A stretch of 64,000 nucleotides of DNA, taken from assembly GCA_026985075.1 (NCBI GenBank), contig JALSQX010000071.1, positions 10,601-74,600 on the forward strand, read 5' to 3'. The DNA is from Blastocatellia bacterium (GTDB lineage: Bacteria > Acidobacteriota > Blastocatellia > HR10 > J050). Numbering within the stretch: position 1 is the first letter of the stretch; every line of letters begins with the position of its first letter. The translations under genes and the position numbers were made by a program. Below, in pieces: positions 15,051 through 37,630 of this stretch. Under the pieces are notes generated by a model that saw only the letters and a list, made by a program, of their open reading frames with translations, did not search any database and was not told the origin of the DNA.

Positions 15051-15812
15051 TCACTTATGCAGCCACCCGTTGCCGATATCCTTTTTCCCGCGCGTGAGTC
15101 GCACGGTGTAGGAGTACATATCCGTGCGATAGAGGGTCTTGACGTATTCGACGGGTTCACCGTCACGACTGAAGACGGTGCGCTCAATGGAGAGCAACGG
15201 CGCGCCAATATTGACTTCGAGCAGGCCAGCCACATATCCATCGGCGAGCGCTGCTGAGATGACCTGAATGGCTTCACCCAACCGAATGTGATACTTATCC
15301 TCGAGGATCTTCAACAACGAGCCTTCGGCGAAATCTTCTCGGCTCAACCGACGCCCAATCGACTCGGGCAGGTAGTTGATCACGTAGCTATAAGGCGTCC
15401 CTCGAAACGAACGAACCTTTTTCGCCCTCAATACCCGCTGGCCAGGTTTCATGCGGAGCTGCTCAGCCTCAGGCTCAGCAGCCTCGATCATCGAAACATC
15501 CAGCACCTTCACCGTTGTCTCAATGCCCATGGCCATCAGATCTTCGATGAATCCCGTCAAGCGAATGGATCCTTTCGCCGGCTTCCGTTGCGTGACGAAG
15601 GTGCCCAAACCTTGCCGACGCTCAATCAGTCCCTCCTCGACCAGAGACGCCAGCGCTTGGCGCACGGTGATGCGGCTGACGCCATATTGCTTACTGAGCT
15701 GGGCCTCGGTGGGGAGCCGCTCACCCTGAGCGAGTTCGCCAGAGTTAATCTTCTCCCGCAGGATACTCTCCAGCTGGTAGTAAAGAGGTACTTTTTTATT
15801 CTCGAACGGCAT
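15051..15812 (-). CDS. GntR (HutC/UTRA) transcriptional regulator
   Basis: PLYYQL, LPTE..L..YGVSRITVRQAL, GLGTFV; UTRA C-terminus. Confidence 0.95.
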   Translation of the reverse strand: MPFENKKVPLYYQLESILREKINSGELAQGERLPTEAQLSKQYGVSRITVRQALASLVEEGLIERRQGLGTFVTQRKPAKGSIRLTGFIEDLMAMGIETTVKVLDVSMIEAAEPEAEQLRMKPGQRVLRAKKVRSFRGTPYSYVINYLPESIGRRLSREDFAEGSLLKILEDKYHIRLGEAIQVISAALADGYVAGLLEVNIGAPLLSIERTVFSRDGEPVEYVKTLYRTDMYSYTVRLTRGKKDIGNGWLHK

Positions 15813-15874
15813 CGACGTCCACCTCAGTTCTCAACGTCTCGCTCGGAGAGCCTTCATACAATCATACCTCGAGC

Positions 15875-18520
15875 TCAGAAATATTTCAAATTCAATCCGA
15901 TGGTGAAACTCCGCCCGCGCGCGGGCGCGAATTGAAATTGCTCTCGATAAAATTTGTTACCCAGATTCTCCACCGCCAGCGTGAGGCTCACCCTGGAGTT
16001 ATCCCGGTCAACCAGATTGATGCCTCCTCTCACCGTGTGGACGGTGAACCCCAACAGGCCCCAAAGGTCGGCGGCCTGCAGGAGAGGAGACTGCCTCAAC
16101 AACGGGGATACACGGTGTACGTGGGTCTGGGATCGAGCCGAGTATTCCCACCAGAGGCGATTGGCACGATCATTCCAGCGCAGTCCGGCTACGATCTTAT
16201 ACGGTGTGATGCCCCCGGCGGGGACGTCTCGCAGAGGGTGTTCGCGATCCAGAGGATTGATGGCCTCCTTGACGACCCCGTACAGATAGCTGAAGTTCCC
16301 AAACAGCGAAAAGATCGACTTCGGCGCCCGGATGGGTACTTCCCAGTCCGCTTCCACGCCCTTGATGCGCACGCGAGAAAAGTTGAGCGTCTGGAAGATG
16401 GGGCCTCCCGCCTCGGCAGAGAAAGAGACCTGTTCGCGGGTCAGGAAATCTTTGTACCAACTGTGGAAATAACTCAGCGAGCCGCTGAATCGAGCCGTCC
16501 TGACCTTCACGCCCACGTCCAGCGTCGTGCCCTTCTCCGGCTTGAGCTTGATGTTGGGGACCAGCGCGCCCGCCTCCGCCGGACCAGAGAAGAATAACTC
16601 CGCTAAGTTAGGATGGCGAAAGCTCCTCCCCACACGTGCCGTGAGGCTGACGCTCTCCAGCGGGTGATAGACCACCCCGACATCGCCCGTGATGCTCGAT
16701 CGATTGAACTTGATCCCATCGACGGGTGGCACCGTGCTCAGGTCGAGGGGAGGATCAGCGCTCTCTAGTTCCGGTGGCCGCGGATTATAGAGAGGCGTCT
16801 TGCGGGCATCGATGTCGAATCGGTCAACGCGCAAGCTCCCGATCAGGCGAATGGAATGACTCACCTCGTGCTCATCTTGAAAGAAGACGGCGAAGTTCTG
16901 AAAATTGGAGATGGGAAGCCGCAAGTCGTGACTGACGGCACCTTCGACAATCGGCGCATCAAGAGGAAAGAAATCCGGAGGCAACGGAGGACGCCCAATG
17001 GCCCCCACCAGCCGGACGCTCACCACCGTCTCGCGAAAATCCTTATTGTGATCCCGGAACAAACTGCTCCCCACGGTGAGGACGTTTTTCGTGCCCAGGA
17101 GGAAGTTCGCCTGCACATCGTAGCCAAATGTTTTCACATTCTGCCCCGTGCTGCTCTGAATATCGACGCGAGCCACGGAAGCGAACGGAGGATCTCCCGG
17201 CTCCGGCTCGCTCAATCCGAACACAAAGAAGTCATTGAACAGCCGCCGATCCTGATGCTGCCAGTATCCTCCAATGGCCAGGCGACTGAACCACGTGGTC
17301 AGCGCCGTCACTTGATAGCGAAGGCTCGCCTTGTCCAGCTTACTCAACGGAAGCTTGAAGGTCTCAAAGATTTGATAGGGGAGGGCGAAATCGGGAAACC
17401 CAATGTCCAGAGCCCGCCGGCGCATCCAGCTCACCTTGAGGGACTGATTTTCGGTGAAAAAGTATCGGCCCACGACATTGATATTATTGCCATGCTCTTG
17501 GGAATTGGGGATCTCCGAACTCGAGCGCACAAACGGTTCGTTGAACACATCGGAAATCGGACCGAACTGCTTGTGTTCGATGACCCCCGCTTCAATCATC
17601 GGAATATTGGACTCACTGAAGGGCTCGCCCGCCGAATAATTAGGGAAACGCTCCAGCATTCCCGACACCCGTACGGCGAATCGCCGACCGGCGACATCCA
17701 CCCGCGCCGTGCCCCGCCGCCCCGGCTCATTACTGCTGAAGTACCCGGTGAAACTCCCTCCCCATCGAATCGCTTCATCCACCGTCCGCGGCATCTGCGT
17801 GATGATGTTAATCGTGCCCGAGAGGGCATCCGTGCCGTACAGCGCCGAACCCGCCCCGTGAACGACCTCTACGGCCTCGATGATCCCGGGATCGATGAGT
17901 CCCACTTCCACGCCGGCGGCTCCTGTCGACGTACGGGAGTTGTTCAACCGCTCTCCATCGACGAGAATCAACAGTCGCGTCGAATCCAGTCCCCGCAATC
18001 GAGGTCGCACGAGATACGGCCCGCTGTTGACCGGCGTCACGCTGGGAACGTTTAACAAGACATCGCCCGTCCCTGCCGGATTCTGCCTAGCCAACACCGT
18101 CTGCGTAATCGCTTGCGTGCGCACGGGGACATTGAGCACATCCCGCTGACCACGAGTGGCGGTCACCGTCACCTGCTCGGTAATGCCACCGGGCATGAGA
18201 TCGAAATTGACTTCGACGGACTCACCCAGCTCGGCGATTTCCAGGTTACGGCTGATTTCCGAGAATCCAGCCTTCTGGACCCGAAGTCGATAGATGCCAA
18301 TAGACAATCCGGTGAACTGGTAAGACCCGGACTCGTCTGAGGTTGTCGTCCGTTCTGTCCCCGTAGCGATATTCAACAGGGTCACCGTTGCACCCACCAC
18401 GGCAGCACCACTCTGATCGACGATATGCCCGTAGATTCGGCTCTCGATTTGAGCTTCGGCACCCGCCACCAGTGTCAAGGTGAGGGTCAAGCTGACGATA
18501 CACACCCGGTGAAACGCCAT
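15875..18520 (-). CDS. TonB-dependent receptor with N-terminal carboxypeptidase-regulatory-like domain
   Basis: Plug motifs LRGLD, LVDGERLN, GAGSALYGTDALSGTINIIT; FRHPNL; ENLGNKFY; C-terminal F. Confidence 0.95.
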   Translation of the reverse strand: MAFHRVCIVSLTLTLTLVAGAEAQIESRIYGHIVDQSGAAVVGATVTLLNIATGTERTTTSDESGSYQFTGLSIGIYRLRVQKAGFSEISRNLEIAELGESVEVNFDLMPGGITEQVTVTATRGQRDVLNVPVRTQAITQTVLARQNPAGTGDVLLNVPSVTPVNSGPYLVRPRLRGLDSTRLLILVDGERLNNSRTSTGAAGVEVGLIDPGIIEAVEVVHGAGSALYGTDALSGTINIITQMPRTVDEAIRWGGSFTGYFSSNEPGRRGTARVDVAGRRFAVRVSGMLERFPNYSAGEPFSESNIPMIEAGVIEHKQFGPISDVFNEPFVRSSSEIPNSQEHGNNINVVGRYFFTENQSLKVSWMRRRALDIGFPDFALPYQIFETFKLPLSKLDKASLRYQVTALTTWFSRLAIGGYWQHQDRRLFNDFFVFGLSEPEPGDPPFASVARVDIQSSTGQNVKTFGYDVQANFLLGTKNVLTVGSSLFRDHNKDFRETVVSVRLVGAIGRPPLPPDFFPLDAPIVEGAVSHDLRLPISNFQNFAVFFQDEHEVSHSIRLIGSLRVDRFDIDARKTPLYNPRPPELESADPPLDLSTVPPVDGIKFNRSSITGDVGVVYHPLESVSLTARVGRSFRHPNLAELFFSGPAEAGALVPNIKLKPEKGTTLDVGVKVRTARFSGSLSYFHSWYKDFLTREQVSFSAEAGGPIFQTLNFSRVRIKGVEADWEVPIRAPKSIFSLFGNFSYLYGVVKEAINPLDREHPLRDVPAGGITPYKIVAGLRWNDRANRLWWEYSARSQTHVHRVSPLLRQSPLLQAADLWGLLGFTVHTVRGGINLVDRDNSRVSLTLAVENLGNKFYREQFQFAPARGRSFTIGLNLKYF

Positions 18521-23690: not shown

Positions 23691-26417
23691 CTAAAAGAAT
23701 CGGACGTTAATCCCCAGCGTGAAGCTGCGCCCCCGTGCTGGCGCGAATTGAAATTGCTCTCGGTAAAACTTATTACCCAGATTTTCTAAGCCCACTGTGA
23801 GGCCCACAGTATAGTGTTCAGTGTGGAAGTTATAACCGCCGCGGAGCGTGTGAACGCTGAATCCATACAGGCCGAACAGATCCTGCGGAATGAGGAACGG
23901 AGAGTCGGCGAGCAGAGGCGAAACACGGTTGACGTGGGTTTGACTCCGGACATTATAGTCCCACCATAAGCGATTGGCATGATCGTTCCAACGGAGACCC
24001 ACGACGGACTTGAAGGGCGTGATATTATCCGCCGGTTGATGGGAGACGTCGACGACGCCAATGCCTTCGCGCGTTCTCAGCACCGCTTCACCGTTCAAGA
24101 TCTCGCCGCGCAGATAGGAGAGATTGCCATACCATGTGAACGTCGTTCCTCGCAAGGGGAGCGGATACTCCCAACTGGCTTCTACTCCCTGAATGCGAAG
24201 CCGTCGGAAGAAGTTCCCCGCCTGGGAGATGGGTTGGGCGTCTCCGAACTCTGGATCGTTATTGGACACGGTGGTGATCTCCGTGGAAATGAAGTTCATG
24301 AAGGTATTGTTGAAATAGCTCAGTTCGCCAGCGAAACGAGAGGTTCTCACCTTGACGCCAACATCCACGTTGACGCCCGTCTCCGGTTTGACCTTGGTGT
24401 TGGGAACAATGGCTCCAATGGTCGCCGGCCCAAAGAAGAACAATTCTTCCAGATTGGGATGACGGAAACTCCGGCCAATACGGGCCGTGATGCTCATCAC
24501 CGGAGTGGGACGAAAGACGAAGCCCAGACTTCCCGTCGTGGCCGTCCGTTTCAAAGTGATCCCAGACGGCGCGGGGAATGCCGAAGGATCTAACGGAGGA
24601 TCGCTCACCGGAATGCGAGGCTCATAGCCGGGAGTGGGAACCGTCTCGACGCTGATGCGATCCACACGAATGCTGCCCAGGATACGCATCCAACGGAAGA
24701 TGTCAAACTCGTCTTCGGCGAAGAAGGCCACATTCTGGAAATTGGAGATGGGAACCCGCTGAGGGTGACCAACCACCCCCGTGACCACGGGGGCATTGAG
24801 CGGGAAGAACGCTCCCGTCTCTCGATTGGCCGCGCCAATAATGGTCACATCGACCAGGGTGAACCGCGAGTCGCGACTATGATCCCGGAAGTAATCGACG
24901 CCGAGCGTTAACATGTTTTTCAGCCCCAACAGAAGCCCCACATTGGCGTCAAACCCGAACGATTTCACATCCTGACGCGTTCGACTGAGAATGTCTACCC
25001 GCGTCAGCGTGTCAAAATTCGGAATATCGGACTCGCTCACCCCCCGTACCGAGATATCGTTTTGCAACATCCGGTCCTGATCTTGCCAATATCCACCGGC
25101 AGAGACACGGGCGAGCCACGACGCGAGTCCCGTTCCCTCATACCGGAGACTCACCTTATCCAGGTCGCTGAACGGTAGATTGATGATCTGGAAGAAGAAG
25201 GGCTGTTTGAAGTCGGGAAAGCCGGTCAGCGCCGTCCGTCGTTGGGTCAACTTCAGGCGCAAGGACTGCCCTTCCACCGGGAAGAACCGAGCCGTGAGAC
25301 TGAGATTGCTCCCATGCGATTGCGAGTTGGCGATTTCAGACGAGGTCCGCGTGAATGGCTCGTTGAACGGATCGGGAACCACGCCGAAGAACACCTGCTG
25401 GATGACGTGACCAGGAGGCGGCTTCAAAACATCCGGATTCGTCCTCGGCGTATTGCTGAACACCGTCACCGGGATGACGACTGGCTCGCTCGTCTCGTTG
25501 AACGGTTTGCCCGCATGATAATTGGGATAGCGCTCCAGCATGACCGATCCGCGAACGGCGAACTTGCGTCCCGCTACATCCAATTTGGCCGTGCCCCGTC
25601 GTCCCGTCTCATTGGAACTGAAGAACCCGTTCACACTCCCCCCGATGTGGAGCCCATCATCCACCGCCTCGGGCATATCGGTGATGATGTTGATCGTGCC
25701 CGAGAGAGCGTCGGTCCCATAGAGAGCAGATCCGGCACCATGAACGACTTCCACAGCCTTGATCTGGCTGGGATCGACTAACCCAATCTCCGGTCCAGCC
25801 CGGTCGGTCGCCACGCGCGATGTGTTGAGCCGCTCTCCATCCACCATGAGAATGAGTCGCGTGGAATCTAATCCCCGCAATCGAGGCCGAACCAGATAGG
25901 GGCCGCTATTGACGGGCGTCAGGCTGGGCAATCGGAGGAGAGCGTCTCCCGTGGTAGTGGGATTCTCTCGCTGGAGGAGTTCCTCGGTCATCACCGCCGT
26001 TCGCGCCGGCACTTCCAGCACATCGCGTTCGCCACGACTGGCCGTCACCGTCAGGACTTCAGCAATGCCTCCCAGACTCAACTCGAAGTTCACCTGTAAG
26101 ACCTCGCCGGGTTCAGCGATGGTGACGCTCCGGAAAGCGTCCGAAAATCCCGGGCTCTGTACCTTAATGCGGTATATCCCAATCGATAAGCTGGGAAACT
26201 CATACTCCCCTTCTCCATTGGTGACTGTTGCCCGCTCGGCTTCGGTGGCTACATTACGGATGGTGACCGTGGCTCCCGCCAACGCCGCACCCGTCTGATC
26301 AGTGACCCGACCCACCACTCGTCCAGTCAGCTGAGCCCAGACCGGCTGACTGAGCACGCTCAATGAACAGAAGAGCCCAGCCACCATCACTTTCATGCGC
26401 GTTGAGTTCCGATCCAT
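23691..26417 (-). CDS. TonB-dependent receptor (paralog of 15875-18520)
   Basis: Shares VNSGPYLVRPRLRGLDSTRL and ENLGNKFYREQFQFAPARGRSF exactly with the paralog. Confidence 0.95.
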   Translation of the reverse strand: MDRNSTRMKVMVAGLFCSLSVLSQPVWAQLTGRVVGRVTDQTGAALAGATVTIRNVATEAERATVTNGEGEYEFPSLSIGIYRIKVQSPGFSDAFRSVTIAEPGEVLQVNFELSLGGIAEVLTVTASRGERDVLEVPARTAVMTEELLQRENPTTTGDALLRLPSLTPVNSGPYLVRPRLRGLDSTRLILMVDGERLNTSRVATDRAGPEIGLVDPSQIKAVEVVHGAGSALYGTDALSGTINIITDMPEAVDDGLHIGGSVNGFFSSNETGRRGTAKLDVAGRKFAVRGSVMLERYPNYHAGKPFNETSEPVVIPVTVFSNTPRTNPDVLKPPPGHVIQQVFFGVVPDPFNEPFTRTSSEIANSQSHGSNLSLTARFFPVEGQSLRLKLTQRRTALTGFPDFKQPFFFQIINLPFSDLDKVSLRYEGTGLASWLARVSAGGYWQDQDRMLQNDISVRGVSESDIPNFDTLTRVDILSRTRQDVKSFGFDANVGLLLGLKNMLTLGVDYFRDHSRDSRFTLVDVTIIGAANRETGAFFPLNAPVVTGVVGHPQRVPISNFQNVAFFAEDEFDIFRWMRILGSIRVDRISVETVPTPGYEPRIPVSDPPLDPSAFPAPSGITLKRTATTGSLGFVFRPTPVMSITARIGRSFRHPNLEELFFFGPATIGAIVPNTKVKPETGVNVDVGVKVRTSRFAGELSYFNNTFMNFISTEITTVSNNDPEFGDAQPISQAGNFFRRLRIQGVEASWEYPLPLRGTTFTWYGNLSYLRGEILNGEAVLRTREGIGVVDVSHQPADNITPFKSVVGLRWNDHANRLWWDYNVRSQTHVNRVSPLLADSPFLIPQDLFGLYGFSVHTLRGGYNFHTEHYTVGLTVGLENLGNKFYREQFQFAPARGRSFTLGINVRFF

Positions 26418-26543
26418 GGTTGAAACTCCTCCCTTCGCAGTCAGTTGATCGAGGCAAGCTGCCGCCGTCCGAAGTTCTCATCAAAACTTCGCCTCGACTT
26501 CAGCCCGGTCCATCGTTACCTCGTCAGGACCTTCTTGATTTGG

Positions 26544-26580
26544 TTGTTATAACTTTATGACATTTAATTTTGAAAGTCAA
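26544..26580 (-). promoter_or_regulatory. sigma70 promoter with overlapping GTTATAAC palindrome (candidate GntR operator)
   Basis: TTGACT-17-TAAAGT on the minus strand; TTGTTATAAC at 26544-26553. Confidence 0.65.
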
Positions 26581-26695
26581 GAAAAAATTCTCCTCGGCGA
26601 TGGAGGGCAGGAGGCCAGTTAGTGCAACTTCTCTCAAATGAATGGCTTAAACAACGGAGACCCGGGAACCGATTGCTTCAGGAGAAGCCAGGGCA

Positions 26696-27490
26696 TCATC
26701 TCGGCGTTTTCTCCGATGGGTTCTCCACCGACGTGATATGGTATCGCCATCCGCGCGAGTGACCAATGAGGCTGTGGGTGAGTTGAATCTTGAACCGGTA
26801 GAGATCGCTTCTGTAGAATCCCCTCACGAACTGAACGGGCCGGCCATGCACATCACAGAAGGTCGTCTCAATGAGTAACAGGGGCGCTCCCACTTTGGTT
26901 GAAAGCAACGCGCCGATGGACGCGTCGGCCAGTGCTCCGGTGATGAGGGCACTGGCTTCTCCCAGAGAGATTCTTCCTCTCTCCTCCAACAGCCGCAGAA
27001 GTGGCAAGGAGAGATCCTCGCCGATCAACCGGTTGCCGATGTCCTCGGGCAGATAGCTCTCCGTGTAAGCATACGGAATCTCCTGGGCATATCTGATTTT
27101 CTTGAGGCGCCACACCCGATCACCCTGGCTGATGTGCAAAGGCTGCGCCTCTTTGGCCGTGGCCTGGATGAATCGGGCATCGAGGATCTCAGTCTTGGTC
27201 TCAACCGAGCTACTCAACCCGTCGATGAAGCCGGTCAGTCGGATAGTCTCGTCCGACGGGGGGATCTGCTTCACAAATGTCCCTCGTCCGGCCACGCGCT
27301 CCAGGAGGCCCTCTTTCACCAGAGCGGCCAGCGCCTGTCTGACCGTTGTGCGACTCACCCCATACTGCTCGATGAGCTCGTTCTCGGTTGGCAGCTTCTC
27401 ACCCCGAGATAACTCGCCCGAGCGGATTTTCTCCCTGAGGATATTCTCTAGCTGGTAGTAGAGTGGAATCTCTCGATGTTGAAACTCCAT
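26696..27490 (-). CDS. GntR (HutC/UTRA) regulator (paralog of 15051-15812)
   Basis: PLYYQLENILREKI, LPTE, YGVSRTTVRQAL. Confidence 0.95.
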   Translation of the reverse strand: MEFQHREIPLYYQLENILREKIRSGELSRGEKLPTENELIEQYGVSRTTVRQALAALVKEGLLERVAGRGTFVKQIPPSDETIRLTGFIDGLSSSVETKTEILDARFIQATAKEAQPLHISQGDRVWRLKKIRYAQEIPYAYTESYLPEDIGNRLIGEDLSLPLLRLLEERGRISLGEASALITGALADASIGALLSTKVGAPLLLIETTFCDVHGRPVQFVRGFYRSDLYRFKIQLTHSLIGHSRGWRYHITSVENPSEKTPR

Positions 27491-27525
27491 AACCGACCTC
27501 AGCTCGGTTTCATCAGGATGAGATG

Positions 27526-27554
27526 AGTATGTGACAATTTCCCTTCCCCGTCAA
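27526..27554 (-). promoter_or_regulatory. sigma70-like promoter of gntR
   Basis: TTGACG-17-CATACT. Confidence 0.5.
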
Positions 27555-27707
27555 TACTGACAGAGGCAGTCATCCTCATGATCCCAGGCCCCAGCCACCG
27601 TCGCCACAGGCCCGAGCCGGACGCTGAGGGAGACCATCAGCCGATGATCATACCGCCGGGCGTTCACAGGGGCCGATGGCTGATAGTCTCCGCCCGCCCG
27701 AGATGGG

Positions 27708-28244
27708 CTATGGAGCGACACATGGCGAGTCGGCTCGTTCCAGAACGAATGTCCCCAAGTTCACGTCATACCCGACATTGGGGTCGAAGTCGCTGGCCGA
27801 CGCATTGGTGTTATCCCCAATGATGATGGCTGTTCCTTCAATGCGATTGGGGGTCATGAAATCGCCACGAAGCACAATGGTCGACGGCGTCCGACTGCTG
27901 GGGACCTCAAAAGTGAGGCTCACCCCGGTAGCATCGGCACCTGATAACGGCGTGCCGCGCCACGTCATCCCACTGGCCCGACCGAGCGGGCCAAACTGGC
28001 AGGGCCCGATAACCAACCCGCCACCAAAATTGTCATTGGGCTGAATAGCCAGATCCAGAAATCCCGGCGAGGCCTCCGCCACCACTCCATAATTGAAGGT
28101 CGGCGCGCCAGGGCCAAAGTTTAATGTCAGGTACCATGTCCCCTTGAAGTCGAAACTCACCTGCGACTGAGATACGGGTGCGGTGAGCAGGGACATGACC
28201 AAGAGGCTCGCGACAGCGAGAATGCGGGTTTTTTTGCTCATCAT
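27708..28244 (-). CDS. Secreted hypothetical protein
   Basis: RBS AAGGAGG, signal peptide MMSKKTRILAVASLL..., beta-rich sequence. Confidence 0.7.
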   Translation of the reverse strand: MMSKKTRILAVASLLVMSLLTAPVSQSQVSFDFKGTWYLTLNFGPGAPTFNYGVVAEASPGFLDLAIQPNDNFGGGLVIGPCQFGPLGRASGMTWRGTPLSGADATGVSLTFEVPSSRTPSTIVLRGDFMTPNRIEGTAIIIGDNTNASASDFDPNVGYDVNLGTFVLERADSPCVAP

Positions 28245-28463
28245 CTCCTCCTTACTTGCGGTAGTTTGAACTCCATGGAGTCTCGGCAATGGTTGCCTTG
28301 CCAAGGGTTACCGGGCTCATGAGAAATGCACCACCTCAGATGAAGTGGTGCCCCCAGCATACTATATCTACAGGTGTGGCATCAAGGTCCCGACCGAACT
28401 CCGTTGCCGCGGTCATTCCGTGCTCGTCACTCACGGGGCAGGCTTCTACCGTGGGTGGCCTTG

Positions 28464-29027
28464 TCACTGAGCGAATTCTCGAACGAAGTTGACCATGGCC
28501 TTGATCTGCTCATCATTCAACTTCTCATCCCACGCCGGCATCGCCCCCCGGCCGTTCTTGATCGTCTCGGCCAACTGGGCGTTGGTCCTGCTCTGTTGCC
28601 AGCTTGCATCAGAGAAATCAGGGACGTTCAGGGCCGCTGCCGCCGGTCCCCCCTTGCCGTCCTCCCCATGACAGGCGGCACAGTTCTCCACGTAAAAGGC
28701 CTTGGCATCGAATTCAACGGCCGCGGCATCCGACTCGGCGTTCTCTCCACCGGCGAAGAACTGAGGATAAGCCTGCCGTAACTCGGATGTGAACCGGTAG
28801 CCCTGGTCAGCGAATGCTTCCCCAAATTCCGTCAGCGGGCCGAAGCCGTCCTGCCGGACGTGACATATCGTGCATCGCCCCTTCAACTCCGCTTTGGCAT
28901 ACGGACTGGCCTCGTACCACTCCATGAATCGAGGCATGGCCCGAAGAACCGGACAGTGAAAGAGCCCATCGATCAGGCAAAGTGAAACTGCACAGAACAC
29001 CAACTTAATACCCCTCATCTTACGCAT
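28464..29027 (-). CDS. c-type cytochrome with two CxxCH motifs
   Basis: CTICH and CAACH; GAMPAW distal Met; signal peptide. Confidence 0.88.
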   Translation of the reverse strand: MRKMRGIKLVFCAVSLCLIDGLFHCPVLRAMPRFMEWYEASPYAKAELKGRCTICHVRQDGFGPLTEFGEAFADQGYRFTSELRQAYPQFFAGGENAESDAAAVEFDAKAFYVENCAACHGEDGKGGPAAAALNVPDFSDASWQQSRTNAQLAETIKNGRGAMPAWDEKLNDEQIKAMVNFVREFAQ

Positions 29028-29095
29028 ATATTCCCTCCTAATTGGCCCTGGGCTGAGGCCGGCGGCCCGACCAACCTCGAGCCCAGGGTCCACCA

Positions 29096-31108
29096 TCACT
29101 TCAAGTATTCCAGTCGGGTGATTTTCATTTCCACCCGCGCCGGTTGGCCGGGCATCGTGGAGAGATGGAGCCTGCCTTTCGGCACCCAGTAGGGACCTTT
29201 CTTCACATACTCATCGACGAACTCGTCCTTGCCGACGACTTGCTTGGTCCCTTTCTTATAGTACGTCACGCCGTACTCGGTGGCGATATACCGCCCATCC
29301 TCCACTAGGAAGCTTTTCTTGTTGTGGATGGTGAAATCGAACCGGCCAATATTCCGACTGAGGTATTTTATCATCTTATCAGCGACGATGTAGCTGGAAC
29401 CCATCGCGTCGCCCTCAACATAAATCTCTTGCCCTTCTGGCCGTTTCTTGCCCAGCTTGAATTTCGCCTTGTCCGGGCCATACCAGTCATCGAACGGCTT
29501 ACGGGGCTGACGATGGGTCACAAACTGGCTCCATTCGGTGTGGGCAAGCACCCGGGCTTTGGGATCGGGAAGGTCGACCGTGATCTTCAAGTTCGGATCA
29601 CACCGCATGTGACCCTGGAGAGGTTCTCCTCCCTCGATGCTGATCGTAAAATCGGCTTCGAAGCCGCGGAATCCCAGGTCCTTGTCCCATACGTACCGGT
29701 TCAAGCTCGCTTCCTTGAAAATGCGGCGGGCCTCCGGATCTTCTTCAGCCGCGCGCAATTCGGCGACCATCCGATCCCACAGGTCAGCCGCCTCCTTGGC
29801 CGAGGCGACGCGATGACCGTTAATCAGCGCCTCCTTCAACTCTCCATGGGAAGCGATGGCCAGCTGACGCGTCCGCTTGTTGAAGTTCTCATAATCATAG
29901 GCCACAATACCCACGCCGCGGGCCATATAATAGGTGCTGCGGACGGAGTTCGTCCCCGTCTCCCAGTTGACACATACGCGGAGGCACTTTTCGAATCGCC
30001 CCATCGGCGTCGTCACCGGCTGAAACCCATCCAAGATGGTCGTGAAGTGAACGAAGTACTTCCCGAGATCCTGGCTATACTTGTACTCGCGGCCCAACAC
30101 CAAGTCATCTCGACCGAGTAACATTGGCGGATCGTAGTTGAACTCAACGCCCTGAGCCCGCATACCTCGTTCGTGCGAAGAGACAATGCGCAGCCCAGTT
30201 CGTCGATCGAGCATGTAGTATTGGTACTCCTCACCGGTATCGTCGACGAGCTTGAACGCCGCACCAGCGTCGAAGAATTTCGTCCCTTCAAAGCGCCGGG
30301 TCCGCTCAAACCGCTTCACGGTCCCATTGGGAAGGCGGAATTCCCAATCATAGGTCCATTTATCGCCCTGGTGGAATGGGAAATACTCCGCAATCTTCAC
30401 CGTCTGAGCCGCATCGCCGCCAATCTTTTTTCCACCCACTGTTCCATGGAGCAGTTCTCGCTCGACGCGAAGCGTCTGGTTGGCGATGGGAGAGTAGATC
30501 TCATGAATCTCTTTGACCACGCCCACTCCCTTAGCCAAAAACGACGTGATCGAATGCGTCGTCCCGGACGGCCGTTCGAATCGAAATGTCGCCTTCAGGC
30601 AATCCTTGAATGCGCCCGCCGGGACTTCCACGCTCTCGAATCCGTAGTACGCCGCTTCGGAGAAGACCGGCTTGCCTTTCGAGGGAGCATGAGGAACGCG
30701 ATACACCTTCCCCGGCTCATATGTCACATTGAGAAAAGTGAAGGGCGGGTTATAGGTTACATCCCCATAGCCCGCATTGTGTCCATAAATGACCAGACGC
30801 TGTTGATCAACCGACACCAGGTAGTAGGCGCCCGTGTCATCAACGAGCTTCTTAGCCCTGATCCGTCCATCGAGCCGAGCTTCCCCTTTGACCGTCTGCG
30901 TCCGCAAGCGATAGAATACCCGGCCATCAGCCCGGAACTCCTTTTCCTGGTACGTCCAACTATTCTTTTCCTGCAATGGATAATAATCAGCCACATCCAC
31001 TTCGGGCTGATTCCCATCGGTCCACTGAGCCGCAAATGCCGGCGTGCCAGCACACACCACCAGCACCAGCGTGAACAGCGTGAATCTGAAGTTGTGTCTC
31101 GTCGTCAT
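29096..31108 (-). CDS. Secreted protein with duplicated N-terminal domain plus DUF3386-like domain (paralog of 22215-23621)
   Basis: Two YxPxxxxxxWTY...xPxGxFxxCL...xAxGVGxV repeats; ARRIFKEASLNRYVW..GFRGF. Confidence 0.7.
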   Translation of the reverse strand: MTTRHNFRFTLFTLVLVVCAGTPAFAAQWTDGNQPEVDVADYYPLQEKNSWTYQEKEFRADGRVFYRLRTQTVKGEARLDGRIRAKKLVDDTGAYYLVSVDQQRLVIYGHNAGYGDVTYNPPFTFLNVTYEPGKVYRVPHAPSKGKPVFSEAAYYGFESVEVPAGAFKDCLKATFRFERPSGTTHSITSFLAKGVGVVKEIHEIYSPIANQTLRVERELLHGTVGGKKIGGDAAQTVKIAEYFPFHQGDKWTYDWEFRLPNGTVKRFERTRRFEGTKFFDAGAAFKLVDDTGEEYQYYMLDRRTGLRIVSSHERGMRAQGVEFNYDPPMLLGRDDLVLGREYKYSQDLGKYFVHFTTILDGFQPVTTPMGRFEKCLRVCVNWETGTNSVRSTYYMARGVGIVAYDYENFNKRTRQLAIASHGELKEALINGHRVASAKEAADLWDRMVAELRAAEEDPEARRIFKEASLNRYVWDKDLGFRGFEADFTISIEGGEPLQGHMRCDPNLKITVDLPDPKARVLAHTEWSQFVTHRQPRKPFDDWYGPDKAKFKLGKKRPEGQEIYVEGDAMGSSYIVADKMIKYLSRNIGRFDFTIHNKKSFLVEDGRYIATEYGVTYYKKGTKQVVGKDEFVDEYVKKGPYWVPKGRLHLSTMPGQPARVEMKITRLEYLK

Positions 31109-31343
31109 AGGCCCCTCCACAAAGTGGATTAAAAACCTTCGCCGAGCCCATCCCCATTCAGGGATGCCAGCAGGAGGTCGAGCATTACGTCTTTCTGAGG
31201 ACAGAGTGGACCCTCCCCTCTCTTTCCCTTCCACATCATTACACCGCGAGAGGAAGGAGCGATCCGCTTATCCCTTCGTGCGTCCGAATTCATCGTTTTC
31301 AACTCTCGTCCTTCGTTCAGCAACTGGTTCACCACCGAACCAG

Positions 31344-31381
31344 TTGTTCTATTTTTATAACAATAATAGATTTTTTGTCAA
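31344..31381 (-). promoter_or_regulatory. sigma70 promoter with TTGTTATAA-containing imperfect palindrome
   Basis: TTGACA-16-TATAAA with extended TG; TTGTT-N10-AACAA; shares TTGTTATAA with the 26544 site. Confidence 0.6.
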
Positions 31382-31660
31382 GCAAAAAGTTTCTCGGAGG
31401 TCGCCGGGCGACCTCTCTCCAGTCACAGCCAAACACAGCATGGTCAGAAGATCGTGGGGTTACCCCAGGCGAGGATGAAGCCCCTCATTCGGTTCGAATG
31501 AGTAGGGCCGACAGGCATAAGGAGGAGGGCGCGAGTGTGAATGTAACTTCTTCTGAAACAAAGAGAACCGGAGACATCACCGTGAGCAGAACCGCACCTG
31601 TGTCGGCCCAGAGTGAAGGATCCTTCCTCCCCAAGCTCACAGCACTGCGGATTGACGGTT

Positions 31661-31830
31661 AAAAAAGGTAGACTTCTCCCTCACAGGGCCTTTGGCGTCT
31701 CTCCTAACCAATGATACTAATTTTCTGAGTGGACCGAGACCGCCGTACCACTAGGTGTGTGGGAATGAGGCGTGACTTCGCTCCTCATTTGAACTCGCAG
31801 GTCACCCTGCAACTCCAAGCCAGGAGCTGC
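31661..31830 (-). ncRNA. Unassigned structured RNA candidate
   Basis: Nested helices with two GUGA (GNRA) loops, enclosing stem CTCCTGGC/GTTAGGAG, 3' three-way junction and U6 tail; no ORF. Confidence 0.6.
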
Positions 31831-31843
31831 TTCTAAGAACCAA

Positions 31844-32680
31844 TCAAGCGGTCTTACGCTTCAGGCCTTGCTGGCGCGTCGAGATCCTGCGCCCTCGTCT
31901 GCGGCTCGCCGCTGCATGAGTGTCCTTCGCATTACCCACTCTGGGAACCAGTAAGTAGCCAAATCCCCGCCGTCTCAATTCCCTGAACAGAGCAGGGAGG
32001 TTCTTGTAGCCAAGCTTTTGACCAAGCTTCCACGCGCTCAGTGAAGGATTTCGATTGTAGAGCTTGATGGCCTCAATGATTCGTTCGCTCCGAAAGTGAC
32101 CAAAGTGTGGCGGCACGAGATCCCTGGCCCGGAGCTTGTTCAGGTGCCAATATACCTTCCAGGTCGGAATACCAAGCGTCCGCGCGATGTTCCGCGTGGT
32201 CATGAGAGGTTGTCGAGCCGCCAGTTTTCTCATCTGCTGGCAGATACTGCACCGCTCAATCCAATGTCCAAGCGTCGGCTTTCGACGAGCAACTTCGAGA
32301 CCCTTCTCTCGAGCCTCCTTCAGAATCTGGTGAACTCGCTGTCGCGTCAACCCGAACTTCCGACCGATCTCCTCGAGCGTTGGTGCCCGCTCAGAATTGT
32401 ACATCTGCACGATCTTGATCATGCGCTGGTCCACGTCTTTGATTGAAGCCAGCTTCTTTTCGATCTGCCTGATCTCGGGAAGCGAGCGTCTCCGTTTGAC
32501 CTCATCGTAGCTCATTCCGAATGCTTTCGTTGCGTTAATCACCGTAGCTGGAGAGACGCCAAAGTGCCTGGCCACAGAGACAAGTCCTTCCTTCTTGCCC
32601 TGGGCGTACTTGATAATTTCTATGTACCTCTTGACCGTTTGTGGTCGTCGAGGCAACTTCAGGATTTTTGCTGTACCCAT
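31844..32680 (-). CDS. Basic multi-HTH DNA-binding protein with sigma70 region-4-like HTH
   Basis: SVARHFGVSPATV, TLEEIGRKFGLTRQRVHQI, NIARTLGIPTWKV, KLGQKLGY; CxxC. Confidence 0.75.
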   Translation of the reverse strand: MGTAKILKLPRRPQTVKRYIEIIKYAQGKKEGLVSVARHFGVSPATVINATKAFGMSYDEVKRRRSLPEIRQIEKKLASIKDVDQRMIKIVQMYNSERAPTLEEIGRKFGLTRQRVHQILKEAREKGLEVARRKPTLGHWIERCSICQQMRKLAARQPLMTTRNIARTLGIPTWKVYWHLNKLRARDLVPPHFGHFRSERIIEAIKLYNRNPSLSAWKLGQKLGYKNLPALFRELRRRGFGYLLVPRVGNAKDTHAAASRRRGRRISTRQQGLKRKTA

Positions 32681-32780
32681 AGTTTTCTTATCGTGACCTC
32701 AAAGTTAAGTTTACACTACTTTGATGCTAAATGCCCAGATGAAGTTTACTACCGGCGTCAATCGTCTTCTGCTGGGACGC

Positions 32781-33626
32781 TCACCGACTCTCGTTGGCGC
32801 TCCGCTCCCAGGAATGATCCAAGACCGGATGGCCCAGTCCCACCCGGTAAGATCGCCTAATTGCCTCAGTAATATAACTCTTGGCCCGGGACACTGCATC
32901 GACGAGACTGTGTCCTTGTGCTAACCCAGCCGCTATGCCCGAGGCAAAAGCGCACCCAGTCCCGTGAACGCCAGTAGGGGTGGCGATTCGCTCAGAGGAG
33001 AACTCGTGGAACTTGTTTCCTATCAGTAGGATATCGACAGCCGTACGGCCCACCCTCAGGTGGCCGCCTTTGATGAGAACGGCCTCGGCGCCCATTTGCT
33101 GAATGACTCGGGCAGCTTTCTTCATCTCCTCCTCGGACTCGATTCGTAATCCAGTGAGTCGTTCCGCTTCCGGGATATTCGGGGTGACCACTGTAGCCTG
33201 AGGAATGATCTTCTCCATCAGGGCTCGCTCCGCCTCGGGGGCCATCAGGGGATCACCTGACTTGGCTCGCATAACTGGATCAACGACCAATGGCCGGAGA
33301 TGGTATGTCTCCAATGCCCTGGCCACCGCCTCGATGATTTCCCGGCTTGACAGCATTCCCGTTTTCACCGCGCGGATCTCGATATCTTCGACAACTGCCC
33401 GCAGTTGTTGGATGACGAGTTCGGCAGGGAGATCAAACACATGGCGTACTCCCCGGGTATTCTGCGCTGTGATGGAAGTCACTACCGAGAGACCATAGAC
33501 CCGAAATGCCTCCAAGGTCTTGAGATCACCCTGAATACCCGCCCCTCCACCAGAATCTGAGCCAGCAATGGTGAGCACGGCCGGCCTGGCCACCCGATCC
33601 CTTGTTGAATGCCTTGGACCGCTCAC
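32781..33626 (-). CDS. thiD: Hydroxymethylpyrimidine/phosphomethylpyrimidine kinase
   Basis: LTIAGSDSGGGAGIQGDLKT, VKTGML, VVDPVM, TPNIPEA, HGTGC; start uncertain. Confidence 0.95.
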   Translation of the reverse strand: MSGPRHSTRDRVARPAVLTIAGSDSGGGAGIQGDLKTLEAFRVYGLSVVTSITAQNTRGVRHVFDLPAELVIQQLRAVVEDIEIRAVKTGMLSSREIIEAVARALETYHLRPLVVDPVMRAKSGDPLMAPEAERALMEKIIPQATVVTPNIPEAERLTGLRIESEEEMKKAARVIQQMGAEAVLIKGGHLRVGRTAVDILLIGNKFHEFSSERIATPTGVHGTGCAFASGIAAGLAQGHSLVDAVSRAKSYITEAIRRSYRVGLGHPVLDHSWERSANESR

Positions 33627-33631
33627 CACTT

Positions 33632-35317
33632 CTACATCCTCACCCAATCAGGCCCACCGCCTCCCTCGGGGGGGACCCAATCAATGATCTGATAGGGATC
33701 CATGATATCGCAGGTCTTGCAGTGAACACAGTTTGAGGCATTGATCTGCAGCGCCTTCTGGCCATCCCCGGTTTCGACCATCTCGTACACGTTGGCCGGA
33801 CAAAAGTACTGGCAGGGGTTCCCATACTCGATCGTGCATCGTTCCGTACAAATATTGAGGTCGCGCACCCGCAAATGGCAGGGCTGATCCTCCTCATGGG
33901 CCGTCCGGGAGTAATAGACATCCGTGAGTTTGTCGAACGTCACTCGTCCATCGACGACGACATCCTCGTCCGGCTGTTTCGATGGCGCGAGGACGCGTCG
34001 TCCATCACTGAGCTTCTTCATCATCGTGTGGCCCGGGTGACTCGGCATGGGGTCTTTCAATCCCCTTCCCCCGGTCAACATCTGTATGGCCGCATTCACC
34101 ATCCCGAAAAGGAAACCCCGCTCGAAGCTTTGATGAAAATTCCGCGCCTTATAGAGTTCAGTTTCTACCCAACTCTCCCGCAGGAGCCTCTCGTAGTGGC
34201 TGAGCTGGTTGGCTGAATAGTCGCCCTTGAGCAGGGCCTGAAAGATGGCCTCAGCGGCCAACATCCCCGATTTCATGGCTAGGTGAATTCCCTTCAATCG
34301 CATCGAATTGAGGAATCCGCCCGAATCTCCAATAATCACCGCACCATCCACATAAGGCCTTGGAATCGCATAGTATCCTCCCTCAGGAAGGCACTTGGCG
34401 CCATAGCGAATGAGCTGACCGCCCTCCAGGAGGCGGTAAATCGCCGGGTGGGCTTTGAATCGTTGAAATTCCCGATGGGCATCGAGTGTGGGGTCCCGAT
34501 AGCTCAACCCCACCACCAGCCCGACACTCAGTAACGTCTCCGATAGCGCGTAAATGAATCCTCCCCCAAAGGCTCGGCCATCCAGGGGGTACCCCATGGT
34601 ATGGATGACCGTGCCTGATCCCAATCTTCCTGGAGGCACTTCCCACAATTCCTTTATGCCAACCGAATAGAGTTGGGGATTCTTCCCTCGATCCAGATGG
34701 AATTTCTCGATCAACGTCTTGGTCAGTGAGCCCCGAACCCCTTCCCCCAGAACAACGACCTTACTCCGAATGTCCACGCCCGGCTCGTAATTCGGCTTCG
34801 GATGTCCATGTCGGTCGAGGCCTCTATCCCCGGTCCGGACGCCGACGACCCGCCCATTGTCATAGAGAAGTTCTGCTCCGGGAAACTCAGGGAAAATATC
34901 GATCCCTGCCGCTTCCGCCTGAGTCGCCAGCCATTTCACAAACTGCCCCAGCGAAATGATGTAATGACCATGATTGCTGAGCGGCGGCGGGATGATCGGC
35001 GACGCCAGTCGGCGCTTTCTGGTCAGAAACCATACCCGATCTTCTGTAACGTTCACCCGAACTGGAGCTCCTCTTTGTTGCCAATCGGGCAGGAGCTCGG
35101 TCAATGCTCGGGGATCGAGGATAGCCCCCGATAGGGTGTGGGCCCCTACTTCTTTCCCTTTCTCAATGATAGCAATCTCGACATGGAGAGGAGACTGGTT
35201 CGTCGTGCGATTGTGCGATTCGATGAGATGAGCCAGATGCAGAGCCCCGCTCAGACTCGCCGGCCCTGCCCCCACGAACAGGACGTCAATATCCAGTGTC
35301 TCTCGCTCTACTGCCAT
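33632..35317 (-). CDS. Electron-transfer flavoprotein:quinone oxidoreductase
   Basis: GAGPA, EKGKEVGAHTLSGA, KGIHLAMKSG, HEEDQPCHL, CPANVYE, NCVHCKTCDI, WVPPEGGGGP. Confidence 0.95.
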   Translation of the reverse strand: MAVERETLDIDVLFVGAGPASLSGALHLAHLIESHNRTTNQSPLHVEIAIIEKGKEVGAHTLSGAILDPRALTELLPDWQQRGAPVRVNVTEDRVWFLTRKRRLASPIIPPPLSNHGHYIISLGQFVKWLATQAEAAGIDIFPEFPGAELLYDNGRVVGVRTGDRGLDRHGHPKPNYEPGVDIRSKVVVLGEGVRGSLTKTLIEKFHLDRGKNPQLYSVGIKELWEVPPGRLGSGTVIHTMGYPLDGRAFGGGFIYALSETLLSVGLVVGLSYRDPTLDAHREFQRFKAHPAIYRLLEGGQLIRYGAKCLPEGGYYAIPRPYVDGAVIIGDSGGFLNSMRLKGIHLAMKSGMLAAEAIFQALLKGDYSANQLSHYERLLRESWVETELYKARNFHQSFERGFLFGMVNAAIQMLTGGRGLKDPMPSHPGHTMMKKLSDGRRVLAPSKQPDEDVVVDGRVTFDKLTDVYYSRTAHEEDQPCHLRVRDLNICTERCTIEYGNPCQYFCPANVYEMVETGDGQKALQINASNCVHCKTCDIMDPYQIIDWVPPEGGGGPDWVRM

Positions 35318-35449
35318 ATGGATCCCCCGGTGTCAAGAGCTTGCTATGTTAACACATAACTTCCTCAAACCGAAAGCGTTTCAACTCCAGGGACACTGCT
35401 CCCCCTCTCGTCTTCGTCGCCGGTTGATACACGCCTGATCAACTTTCTC

Positions 35450-35489
35450 TTGACTTTGTTCCCCCAATTTCATAAACTGGGGAAGTCAA
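35450..35489 (+). promoter_or_regulatory. sigma70 promoter embedded in an inverted repeat (probable autoregulatory operator)
   Basis: TTGACT-17-TAAACT; arms TTGACTT..CCCC / GGGG-AAGTCAA. Confidence 0.7.
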
Positions 35490-35517
35490 AAACGGTCAAT
35501 GGAGGTTGCCACTGGAT

Positions 35518-35715
35518 ATGTTGGCGAATGATGAGGTCCTGACGTCAAAAGAGGTGATGGCGTATCTGCGAATCAGCAAGCCTACTCTGTATCGGATGAT
35601 CCGACTCGGTGATCTGAGAGCCGTGAAGATTGGAAAAAACTATCGTTTCTTGAAAAAAGACGTCGAACGCCTTCTGCGGGCAGACTCCGAATCGGTCAAT
35701 GTGAGGAGTAAATGA
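35518..35715 (+). CDS. Small HTH_17/excisionase-like DNA-binding protein
   Basis: LTSKEVMAYLRISKPTLYRMIRLGDLRAVKIGKNYRF. Confidence 0.9.
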   Translation: MLANDEVLTSKEVMAYLRISKPTLYRMIRLGDLRAVKIGKNYRFLKKDVERLLRADSESVNVRSK

Positions 35716-35718
35716 GCT

Positions 35719-36492
35719 ATGGCCAATGTCATTGCTGTGGCAAACCAGAAAGGAGGAGTAGGAAAGACCACCGTCGCCGTTAATCTGGCCATTGCCGCCG
35801 CACGAAATGGGTTGCAGACGCTCCTTGTCGACGCCGATTCCCAAGCCAATGCCACGAGCACGTTCTTTCCCAAGGAGGGGATCGGTCAATCACTGTATAA
35901 CGTTTTAGAGGAAGGACTTTCGGCTAAGCGGGTCATCCTCCAGACCAACATCATCAACCTTGATTTACTCCCCTCCACCATTCAACTGGCTCGCGAGGAG
36001 ACGAACTTCAATCCGGATACCTTCTTCAGACTGGAGGACGCCCTGCTCGGCTTGGATTACGATCTCATTTTCATCGATGCCCCTCCGAGTCTGGGCGTTT
36101 GCTTCACCCAAGCGTTAGTGGCCGCCGATTACCTCCTCATTGTCACTGTGGCTGGAAAGTTTGCAGCCGAGGGCATTGAAGACCTCAACGATTCCTATGA
36201 ACGCATCAAACGCCGGTTCAACCACAATCTTCAACTTCTGGGATGTGTCCTCAATAAGTTTGATGGGCGGGTGACGGGACACAAGGAGTCCAAGATGTGG
36301 TTGCGCGGCGTATTCGGCAAAAAGGCGTTCAACACAATCATTCCAACACATGCTGCCCTTGAGACAAGCCCTATTGCCGTTCCGGGGACCAAGAGCGATA
36401 TCGCTTTTCAGCAATTGTTCGAAGAAATCGCCCCTCGAATTGGCATCCCATTGGAAGGCAAGGAGGAGATCAGTGGCGAAAAGGAAAAATAA
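35719..36492 (+). CDS. ParA/Soj-family ATPase
   Basis: NQKGGVGKTT, VDADSQANAT, IDAPPSLG, ALVAAD. Confidence 0.93.
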   Translation: MANVIAVANQKGGVGKTTVAVNLAIAAARNGLQTLLVDADSQANATSTFFPKEGIGQSLYNVLEEGLSAKRVILQTNIINLDLLPSTIQLAREETNFNPDTFFRLEDALLGLDYDLIFIDAPPSLGVCFTQALVAADYLLIVTVAGKFAAEGIEDLNDSYERIKRRFNHNLQLLGCVLNKFDGRVTGHKESKMWLRGVFGKKAFNTIIPTHAALETSPIAVPGTKSDIAFQQLFEEIAPRIGIPLEGKEEISGEKEK

Positions 36493-37630
36493 GTTACCCT
36501 TACGCGAGGGAACCAAACTCTCCCCACTGACTGAAGAGGAGCGTCTCGCCAGACGAGCCCGGGGGCATCCACTGGATGCTTTTCCCATCCAGCCACGAAT
36601 GTCTCAATGGCGGGAGGTTGATCCCGGTGAGAGCGCGGCGACCGCTGTCCCGGAAAAGGTTATTGAACGTTCAGTTGAACGTTCAATTGAACGTTCAGCG
36701 AAACGTTCAATTGAACGTTCACTCTCATCCGTAGACGATAGACAAATAAAAGAGGCCTACGTCGCTCTGGACGCCACCCATACGGCATCAGAAGCCAAGA
36801 TCTATGGCTACCTCTATCGACTCTCCATTGCCAAAGGCCAGTCGACGTGCCGCGCTTCTCTGGCCGATTTCCAGAACCGCCTTGGCCTCGCTAAGAACAC
36901 TATTATCAGGGCGTTGCGTGGACTAGCTGAGAAACTCTCCATCGATGTCATCGAGCGCCGCCCAGGTTCTCGCATTGGCTCACTTTACCGGGTGTACAAC
37001 GTTAAGGAGATCCTGAGCCGGCGCAAAGAGGCTGGAATCGAGATCGATGAGCTCAAGCGAATCGTCAGAAAAGGTTCAATTAAACGTTCAGTTGAACGTT
37101 CAATTGAACGTTCGAAAATTGAACGTTCAATGGTTCAAAAATTGAACGTTCAATTGAACGTTCAAGATGAACATAAATCACAAAATAACAGTGACTTAGA
37201 GCTAAAGGTTCAAACGCCTAAGAATTTATATTTAAGAAATGACGATGATGTTGACACATCATCGTCATATAGCGACGATGACGATGATGCTCAAACCCGC
37301 ATCCGTCAGATCTACTGCCATCTCACGGGAAATCCCTGGCGATCCTCTGATTCCAACGCGGCTCAGGAGATTATCCACATTCCGATCGCTCACATCATCC
37401 TTGGCATTTGCTACTCGCTGGACCGCGCAACAAGCCACCGGGTGGGCAGTCTCAAATATTGCGTGCCGTCAATCCTGGACCATTATGAGGCGATGAAGGC
37501 CTTTCCACAAAAAGAGCTGACGGAAATTGCCTATACCCACATGTTGAGAGTCAAACAGGCGCAAAAAACCGGGAACTGGGAACCAGGCAAGCGTTCTCAC
37601 AAGCCCAGAGTGGAGAGCAAAGATCAATGA
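36473..37630 (+). CDS. Putative replication initiator (wHTH) with internal iteron-like repeats
   Basis: GTG start with AGGAGG RBS; SEAKIYGYLY...SLADFQNRLGLAKNTIIRALRGL HTH; acidic linker; C-terminal SLKYCVPSI. Confidence 0.65.
   Translation: MAKRKNKLPLREGTKLSPLTEEERLARRARGHPLDAFPIQPRMSQWREVDPGESAATAVPEKVIERSVERSIERSAKRSIERSLSSVDDRQIKEAYVALDATHTASEAKIYGYLYRLSIAKGQSTCRASLADFQNRLGLAKNTIIRALRGLAEKLSIDVIERRPGSRIGSLYRVYNVKEILSRRKEAGIEIDELKRIVRKGSIKRSVERSIERSKIERSMVQKLNVQLNVQDEHKSQNNSDLELKVQTPKNLYLRNDDDVDTSSSYSDDDDDAQTRIRQIYCHLTGNPWRSSDSNAAQEIIHIPIAHIILGICYSLDRATSHRVGSLKYCVPSILDHYEAMKAFPQKELTEIAYTHMLRVKQAQKTGNWEPGKRSHKPRVESKDQ
36663..36722. repeat. Tandem array of five 12-bp palindromes (TTGAACGTTCAA consensus)
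   Basis: ttgaacgttcag ttgaacgttcaa ttgaacgttcag cgaaacgttcaa ttgaacgttcac. Confidence 0.95.
37071..37165. repeat. Second array of six full plus partial TTGAACGTTCAA palindromes, followed by an AT-rich tract
   Basis: Units at 37080, 37092, 37104, 37119, 37142 and 37154; AT-rich 37166-37240. Confidence 0.95.

Follow-up and report, generated by a model that had tools for sequence, protein, structure and literature searches.

Gene setting of the stretch

The window, that is the whole stretch of DNA analysed here (64,000 nt), belongs to a 5.2-Mb acidobacterial genome that was assembled from a metagenome. Sequencing runs containing window DNA carry the label hydrothermal vent metagenome. The local gene order on the minus strand starts with ETF-QO (33632-35317), which is followed by ThiD (32781-33647) and then by a multi-HTH gene (31844-32680), recognised by its ORF and its Pfam matches and coding for 278 aa. 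Beyond it lies a noncoding stretch, 609 nt long by the ORF list and probably ~735 nt, reaching to an ATG at 31108, after which come a DUF3108-like/DUF3386 gene and a cytochrome c gene. The candidate (31661-31830, minus strand, 55% G+C) is the part of this noncoding DNA that follows the multi-HTH gene. The stop codon of that gene, a TGA, is at 31846-31844, and the candidate begins 13 nt past its last base, close to the ~15 nt given by an earlier, sequence-only reading of the same DNA.

The multi-HTH protein combines a sigma-70 region-4-like module with further HTH modules and a basic C-terminal tail. Pfam matches were to Sigma70_r4 (1.7e-9) and HTH_28 (2.8e-9), and further HTH families matched more weakly at residues 17-47 and 143-189. 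Matches in the PDB were to sigma region 4 only, and just one module of the protein is similar to sigma-70 region 4. The family is confined to one acidobacterial order: 10 of the order's 11 other genomes have a homologue, against 0 of 389 from the rest of the class. Its gene neighbours vary from genus to genus. At nine loci from other genera of the order, the DNA 3′ of the HTH homologue is unrelated in sequence to the candidate and, by eye, runs into different genes. Scanning a metagenome collection with the HTH protein returned one weak locus and no further relative, and a genome collection returned four loci, two of them contigs of a genome from the same genus (G001), again with no further relative.

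G001 is the sister species used for comparison below. Its assembly is broken inside the HTH gene, where two contigs (C274 and C434) overlap at codons 50-81. Third positions differ between the two species in 4 of the first 50 codons and in 71 of the remaining 228 (Fisher P = 0.0007). The proximal 5′UTR (~50 nt upstream of 32531-32680) appears by eye to be likewise highly conserved at the nucleotide level. The low divergence of codons 1-50 could reflect constraint on the RNA or a recent recombination tract.

Distribution and rate of change

The candidate is single-copy in its own genome. A DNA search of 60 other genomes of the class found it only in G001, where the first 90 nt are 74% and the last 58 nt 71% identical; the stretch is found in one acidobacterial genus only. 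Weak DNA matches to 31761-31798 in three further genomes (G054, G015 and G003, E = 4.9e-4 to 0.03) fall inside long ORFs and were set aside as chance. A contig from a close strain (X2) was also available, which differs from the window by 20 substitutions and 3 indels in 1601 nt. A contig from another run (X3) covers only 32005-32155, within the HTH gene, at a depth of 2.

Between the two species, the candidate is identical at 116 of 170 positions (68%), plus 12 gap columns. This is no different from the four-fold degenerate sites of the HTH gene (68/103, 66%; P = 0.30). The spacer further on (31401-31660) is 53% identical and the leader of the next gene (31235-31400) 77% identical. Differences to X2 number 5 in the 170 nt of the candidate and 10 in 837 nt of the gene (P = 0.15). 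As a whole, the stretch is without visible constraint. Its identity is clumped, though. Two runs of 13 invariant nt stand out in the flank (permutation, P = 0.0045). The 3′ part is weakly conserved, with 37 of 48 positions identical to G001, which is only marginally above the 66% level of synonymous sites (P = 0.07). The candidate also contains a poorly conserved spacer (31717-31779, minus strand); over positions 31709-31760 only 28 of 52 positions are identical, with 6 gap columns.

Test of a self-contained fold

The sequence-only reading had described the candidate as a ~170-nt RNA of seven helices with a U6 tail, unassigned to a family, and had proposed a novel ncRNA or ribozyme that might be a partner of the HTH protein. 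Much of the description holds. The sequence reads as given on the minus strand, which is the relevant one, all 36 of the 36 listed base pairs are standard pairs in the window, and the U6 tail is there as a run of six T (31666-31661). Nor does the stretch belong to a known family according to scans for Rfam families, tRNA and tmRNA. Covariance models of Rfam 15 gave 0 matches at gathering score in the 64,000 nt, a permissive Rfam search of 31100-32000 returned SNORD89 as its best match (16 bits vs a threshold of 41, E = 4.5), and ARAGORN found 0 tRNA or tmRNA genes.

The fold itself fared worse. The stretch, taken as 186 nt, folds at -58.4 kcal/mol vs -54.3 ± 4.5 kcal/mol for 200 shuffled sequences (z = -0.91), with 39 of the 200 shuffles folding as well; the plus strand gives a z of -0.83. 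The minimum-energy fold differs from the seven-helix fold. Aligned with this genome, G001 retains 24 of the 36 pairs and breaks 12, with a single compensatory change (in the closing pair of hairpin 2), and 255 of 500 column shuffles give as good a result; the comparison covers two species and one strain and is of low power. Of the two hairpins within the poorly conserved spacer, hairpin 3 has 3 of its 7 pairs broken in G001 and hairpin 4 has 3 of its 4. The AGAC/GTCT stem does not survive in G001, nor in X2, where a separate change at 31672 breaks it, and the GNRA loop reads GUGC in G001. A covariance model of the fold found just its two training sequences among 151 genomes (next best E = 0.01, 21.9 bits), leaving no structural homologue in the 149 other genomes.

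A few observations fit a self-folding RNA: besides the 36 pairs that can form in the window, only one of the 7 pairs of hairpin 2 is lost in G001, with the compensatory change among the 6 that remain, and the 5-bp core of the enclosing stem sits between two invariant blocks, with a G>A change at 31821 in X2 converting a G.U pair within this stem to A-U. Set against the ordinary folding energy, the broken pairs, the synonymous-rate divergence and the empty homologue searches, these leave the self-folding RNA or ribozyme, perhaps bound by the HTH protein, as the least probable of the readings considered here, and the comparison with G001 appears largely to refute it. Helices found by eye in 170 nt of sequence with 55% G+C are to be expected by chance. 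The most RNA-like part of the description was accounted for by a search for complementarity against the neighbouring gene.

An inverted copy of HTH codons 29-48

The last 56 nt of the candidate (31661-31716, minus strand), which take in the three-way junction and the U6 tail of the earlier description, match the inverse of nt 85-144 of the HTH ORF (codons 29-48) as a diverged copy. They are better read as an antisense image of these codons than as a junction with a tail, and the link between the stretch and the HTH gene made by the sequence-only reading is upheld in this form. The partner segment in the ORF is at 32538-32596 (minus strand). At the centre is a perfect core of 15 nt, located at 31690-31704 in the flank arm and at 32550-32564 (ORF nt 117-131) in the gene, where it encodes F-G-V-S-P of the first HTH. 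Detected as an inverted repeat, the arms are 31684-31704 and 32550-32570 (21 nt, 90% complementary) and enclose 845 bp; it is the sole inverted repeat of at least 12 nt within 31600-32800. The similarity is still legible as peptide, with the plus strand of the flank reading K-K-G-R-L-L-P-H-R-A-F-G-V-S-P and the gene K-K-E-G-L-V-S-V-A-R-H-F-G-V-S-P. It seems secure that the last 56 nt arose by inverted partial duplication of codons 29-48. The 5′ two-thirds of the flank have no similarity to the gene in either orientation (scores of 16-20 vs nulls of 18-21).

The core is the only complement of at least 9 nt between gene and flank, and a 15-nt complement was reached by 0 of 150 and 0 of 1000 shuffles of the flank. 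Local alignment of ORF nt 85-131 with the reverse complement of 31662-31704 scores 40, compared with 23.0 ± 3.1 for shuffled sequences (1 of 300 alignment shuffles reached a score of 46). When 2500 long ORFs sampled from the genome were compared with their own 200-nt flanks, a complement of at least 15 nt was seen for two, the HTH gene and an ORF on contig C52. The strongest inverted similarity of a gene to its own 200-nt 3′ flank in this genome belongs to a long ORF outside the window (contig C46, plus strand, 15016-17925), whose score is 72 vs a genome mean of 24.9 ± 3.7.

That the repeat is pure coincidence, with nothing under constraint, is highly improbable. It is true that about 0.5 15-mers would be expected in 2500 gene-flank pairs where two were seen, and that the score of 40 ranks 12th among the 4283 long ORFs of the genome, being matched or exceeded by 12 of them. 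The per-gene probability (~0.0008 to 0.003) is nonetheless the one that applies, because the gene was not chosen by a genome-wide repeat scan, and under chance alone the complementarity would not be expected to reach well beyond the core, nor the core to coincide with an invariant block.

At eight loci of the same family from other genera no significant complement between gene and flank was found, whether measured by the longest complement (P = 0.21-1.0) or by the duplex (P = 0.22-0.95); target-specific P values ranged from 0.042 to 0.93. Short complements to the same ORF site, a 9-mer at L040 (P = 0.042) and 8-mers at L039 and L041 (P = 0.19 and 0.18), were considered and none was robust. A further locus with the same ORF segment as L040 (L042) is without the 9-mer.

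Two arms of an inverted repeat, one of them inside a gene, might also be recombination sites. In that case an invertase would flip the ~850-bp segment and so switch between the full-length regulator and a 45-aa stub ending F-G-V-S-P-N-Q-stop, giving phase variation. The repeat pair with its 15-bp perfect core and its placement around 845 bp would suit such an element, as would the plus-strand frame, which stops two codons past the flank arm. A preprint on invertons describes inverted repeats overlapping with genes (10.1101/2023.03.11.532203). Strand-switching joints are, however, absent from the X1 and X2 contigs, a check made on contigs only, which a minority orientation could escape. Among 10 ORFs scanned in 23691-37630 none matched a recombinase family (two were without any family match), and an invertase can also act from a distant locus. 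Moreover, the complementarity spans ~56 nt and has G.U-type mismatches, as would be expected of RNA more than of a recombinase site, and the break between the G001 contigs (codons 50-81) is near a repeat arm, yet not at it. We regard inversion as quite improbable.

Proposed pairing of the flank with the HTH message

Since the 3′ third is an antisense image of HTH codons, its likely partner is the HTH mRNA or the DNA of the gene, rather than the HTH protein. A fold model of a 1066-nt read-through transcript predicts that 31715-31661 pairs with 32538-32596 in 48 pairs, a duplex that replaces the three-way junction and takes in the U-run. All 15 core pairs have a modelled probability of at least 0.997. 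The T6 run (31661-31666, minus strand) is predicted to pair with the A/G-rich codons 29-32; only four T stand at this position in G001. The Shine-Dalgarno and start region is not the target: the 5′UTR (-100 to +30) against the flank gives a z of -0.62, with 54 of 200 shuffles as good, and the same comparison in G001 gives a z of -2.1 (5/200).

Our preferred reading, held tentatively, is that the stretch is the 3′ flank of a multi-HTH regulator gene rather than a free-standing folded RNA, and that the 3′UTR pairs with its own coding region in a manner resembling icaR. The HTH transcript would read through the flank, and the segment 31716-31661 would fold back on the coding region, forming a 15-bp perfect core within an imperfect duplex of ~48 bp. 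This long duplex could then limit the regulator's own expression post-transcriptionally, by serving as substrate of a double-strand-specific RNase or by blocking translation.

A second feature of the putative 3′UTR is an imperfect strong hairpin at 31780-31827 (minus strand), which starts 17 nt 3′ of the stop and includes the GNRA hairpin of the earlier description. It is the one part of the candidate to stand out in folding energy, at -30.5 kcal/mol (z = -5.04, matched by 0 of 200 shuffles), and is retained in the fold model of the full-length mRNA. No U-run follows it. The homologous stretch of G001 has a different fold of -15.9 kcal/mol (z = 0.06), and the hairpin may be a 3′-UTR stem-loop specific to the lineage. 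Within it, a 13-nt block identical in G001 (31813-31825, minus strand) is not accounted for by the inverted repeat. The sigma-54 promoter consensus has its GG and GC elements exactly 10 bases apart; the block resembles such a site and was rejected as one, the GG-to-GC spacing being 9 bases in both species.

The same complementarity evidence would equally suit a separate small RNA of ~170 nt with its own transcription, whose 3′ third is antisense to codons 29-48 of the HTH mRNA. Its outline, a stable 5′ hairpin and a 3′ T-run, is sRNA-like. No promoter-like site was found in 31000-32100, although this is weak evidence, as the same scan missed an evident TTGACA/TATAAA nearby. A terminator scan found no site at the T-run (31661-31716) nor at the hairpin (31780-31827), its sole site being a weak one of 5 bp across the stop codon. 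With the hairpin not stable in G001, the T-run reduced there, and a stretch that is single-copy and limited to one genus, a separately transcribed RNA is unlikely.

A small-protein gene was also considered for the region. The leads were a series of synonymous changes over E-V-T-P-H-S-H and a shared tail of peptide sequence that ends at 31637. In the most favourable frame, 7 differences are synonymous and 11 non-synonymous, which is no better than column shuffles give (P = 0.33 by count, 0.14 by fraction). The candidate ORFs are 33 aa and 61 aa long with unrelated tails and no homologue beyond the same locus in 12 genomes of the order, and the idea was dropped.

Possible maintenance of the inverted copy

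Whether the copy is kept for a function can be addressed by how its arms have changed. The core is retained in both the sister species and the sister strain. In G001 it comprises 12 of the 15 nt (P = 0.001) and falls on one of the two invariant runs of 13 nt, and a second conserved block of 10 nt also falls within the duplex. Altogether 42 of 54 aligned positions are Watson-Crick pairs. Mismatches between the arms in this genome comprise 5 transitions of the G.U type vs 0 of the A.C type (P = 0.03), and in G001 7 of the G.U type vs 3 of the A.C type, a pattern in keeping with RNA pairing by the sense strand. One candidate compensatory change, which depends on the register of the pairing, joins ORF nt 113 (G here, A in G001; R38K) with flank position 31686 (C here, T in G001). 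In X2, an A>G change at 31693 (sense) turns an A-U pair into G.U and a G is inserted at the edge of the core. Other changes weaken the duplex: 31672 and its partner 32585 have both changed in X2 to give C.U, an A>C change at 31715 breaks an end pair there, and in G001 the helices at 31706-31715 are lost and a 4x4 loop lies beside the core.

These observations were weighed on both sides. Counted for self-pairing were complementarity above chance, the kept core, the G.U-type mismatches and the few synonymous differences in codons 1-50, together with the duplex of the mRNA model and the icaR precedent. Counted against it were the one-genus range, the loss of the outer duplex and the weak conservation. 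Furthermore, the target lies inside the ORF, where ribosomes would unwind a duplex, and away from the Shine-Dalgarno site. The low synonymous divergence also spans codons 1-28, which are outside the duplex, and could reflect recombination.

The main competitor is a neutral relic, in which an old inverted partial duplication without function is decaying and the remainder of the candidate is unremarkable intergenic DNA. We consider this quite possible, and a decaying relic to be nearly as likely as self-pairing of the 3′UTR. The plus strand of the flank still reads as a recognisable copy of the gene peptide, the candidate diverges as four-fold sites do, the outer helices have gone in G001 and X2, X2 differs more in the stretch than in the gene, and the repeat is absent at the eight loci of other genera. 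On the other hand, two invariant runs of 13 nt are unlikely under neutral divergence, and neither the 5:0 bias of the transition mismatches nor the candidate compensatory change would be expected of a relic. A relic would also have to be older than the divergence of the two species, now different at 34% of their four-fold sites, and still have kept its 42 Watson-Crick positions.

Should self-pairing or a related mechanism hold, the regulator gene may have made its own antisense, through an inverted duplication of 60 nt that acts in the 3′UTR, or in a small RNA from it, to set the level of the regulator. We put this forward as a tentative proposal. To our knowledge, such a route to a self-targeting 3′UTR by inverted duplication has not been described in bacteria. 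If functional, the locus would join the very few known bacterial mRNAs in which the 3′ end regulates the mRNA's own 5′ part, as an example from an uncultured acidobacterium of a hydrothermal vent, and would offer a simple evolutionary origin for such elements, namely the reverse duplication of a piece of the gene. If the copy is a relic, it is an ordinary finding.

The leader of the next gene

Further along the noncoding stretch, the ~240-nt leader upstream of the DUF3108-like/DUF3386 gene is 82% identical in G001 over 292 nt, vs 66% at four-fold sites. A promoter-like block, TTGACA-N17-TATAAA, lies within 31108-31380 (minus strand) and is nearly identical in G001. A leader hairpin at ~31346-31321 has 9 pairs kept in G001 through 3 double changes, and the leader (31108-31380) has no match in Rfam. 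By these features, the leader has a stronger claim to be a structured cis-regulatory RNA than the stretch at 31661-31830, although it too is seen in one genus only.

The ORF of this gene is listed with 712 aa and a GTG start at 31234, which probably extends it too far. An ATG at 31108-31106 behind a GGAGGGG site is present in both species, followed in G001 by what appears by eye to be a signal peptide, and X2 has a 1-nt deletion at 31214, within the extension (31106-31234).

Comparison with known systems

An intrinsic terminator consists of a G+C-rich stem with a U-run within 2 nt. The candidate resembles such a terminator, or a 3′ stem-loop, in having a stable hairpin soon after the stop and a T-run further on. 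It differs in that the hairpin has no U-run and the T-run no abutting G+C-rich stem, and the terminator scan flags neither. Small structured RNAs are known from acidobacteria through comparative genomics, among them the Rfam motifs Acido-1 and Acido-Lenti-1; the window differs in being without any Rfam 15 match at gathering score.

Invertons share with this locus a segment of a few hundred bases flanked by inverted repeats, with one arm inside a gene (10.1101/2023.03.11.532203). Here, in contrast, no flipped orientation was seen in the contigs, no recombinase was found among the ORFs scanned nearby, and the complementarity is long and imperfect, with mismatches of the G.U type.

Closer parallels come from mRNAs whose ends interact. 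In the hbs mRNA of Bacillus subtilis, an interaction between the 5′- and 3′-UTRs is reported to couple stability with translation (PMC5737220). The likeness is a long-range interaction between two ends of one bacterial mRNA that affects the action of ribonucleases; the difference is that hbs pairs UTR to UTR, whereas here the 3′ flank would pair with the coding region (PMC5737220).

The closest is icaR of Staphylococcus aureus. Its 3′UTR is reported to pair with the 5′UTR through a short UCCCCUG motif directed at the Shine-Dalgarno region, and the duplex blocks translation, is a substrate of RNase III and lowers the level of the regulator (PMC3868564). The two differ in that the putative target here is codons 29-48 within the ORF, with a 15-nt perfect core and ~48 model pairs, and in that pairing with the Shine-Dalgarno region, the icaR target, was not found. 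The flank arm here is, in addition, a recognisable inverted copy of its target. What the two have in common is a long 3′ untranslated segment of a regulator mRNA that is complementary to the mRNA's own 5′ part (PMC3868564).
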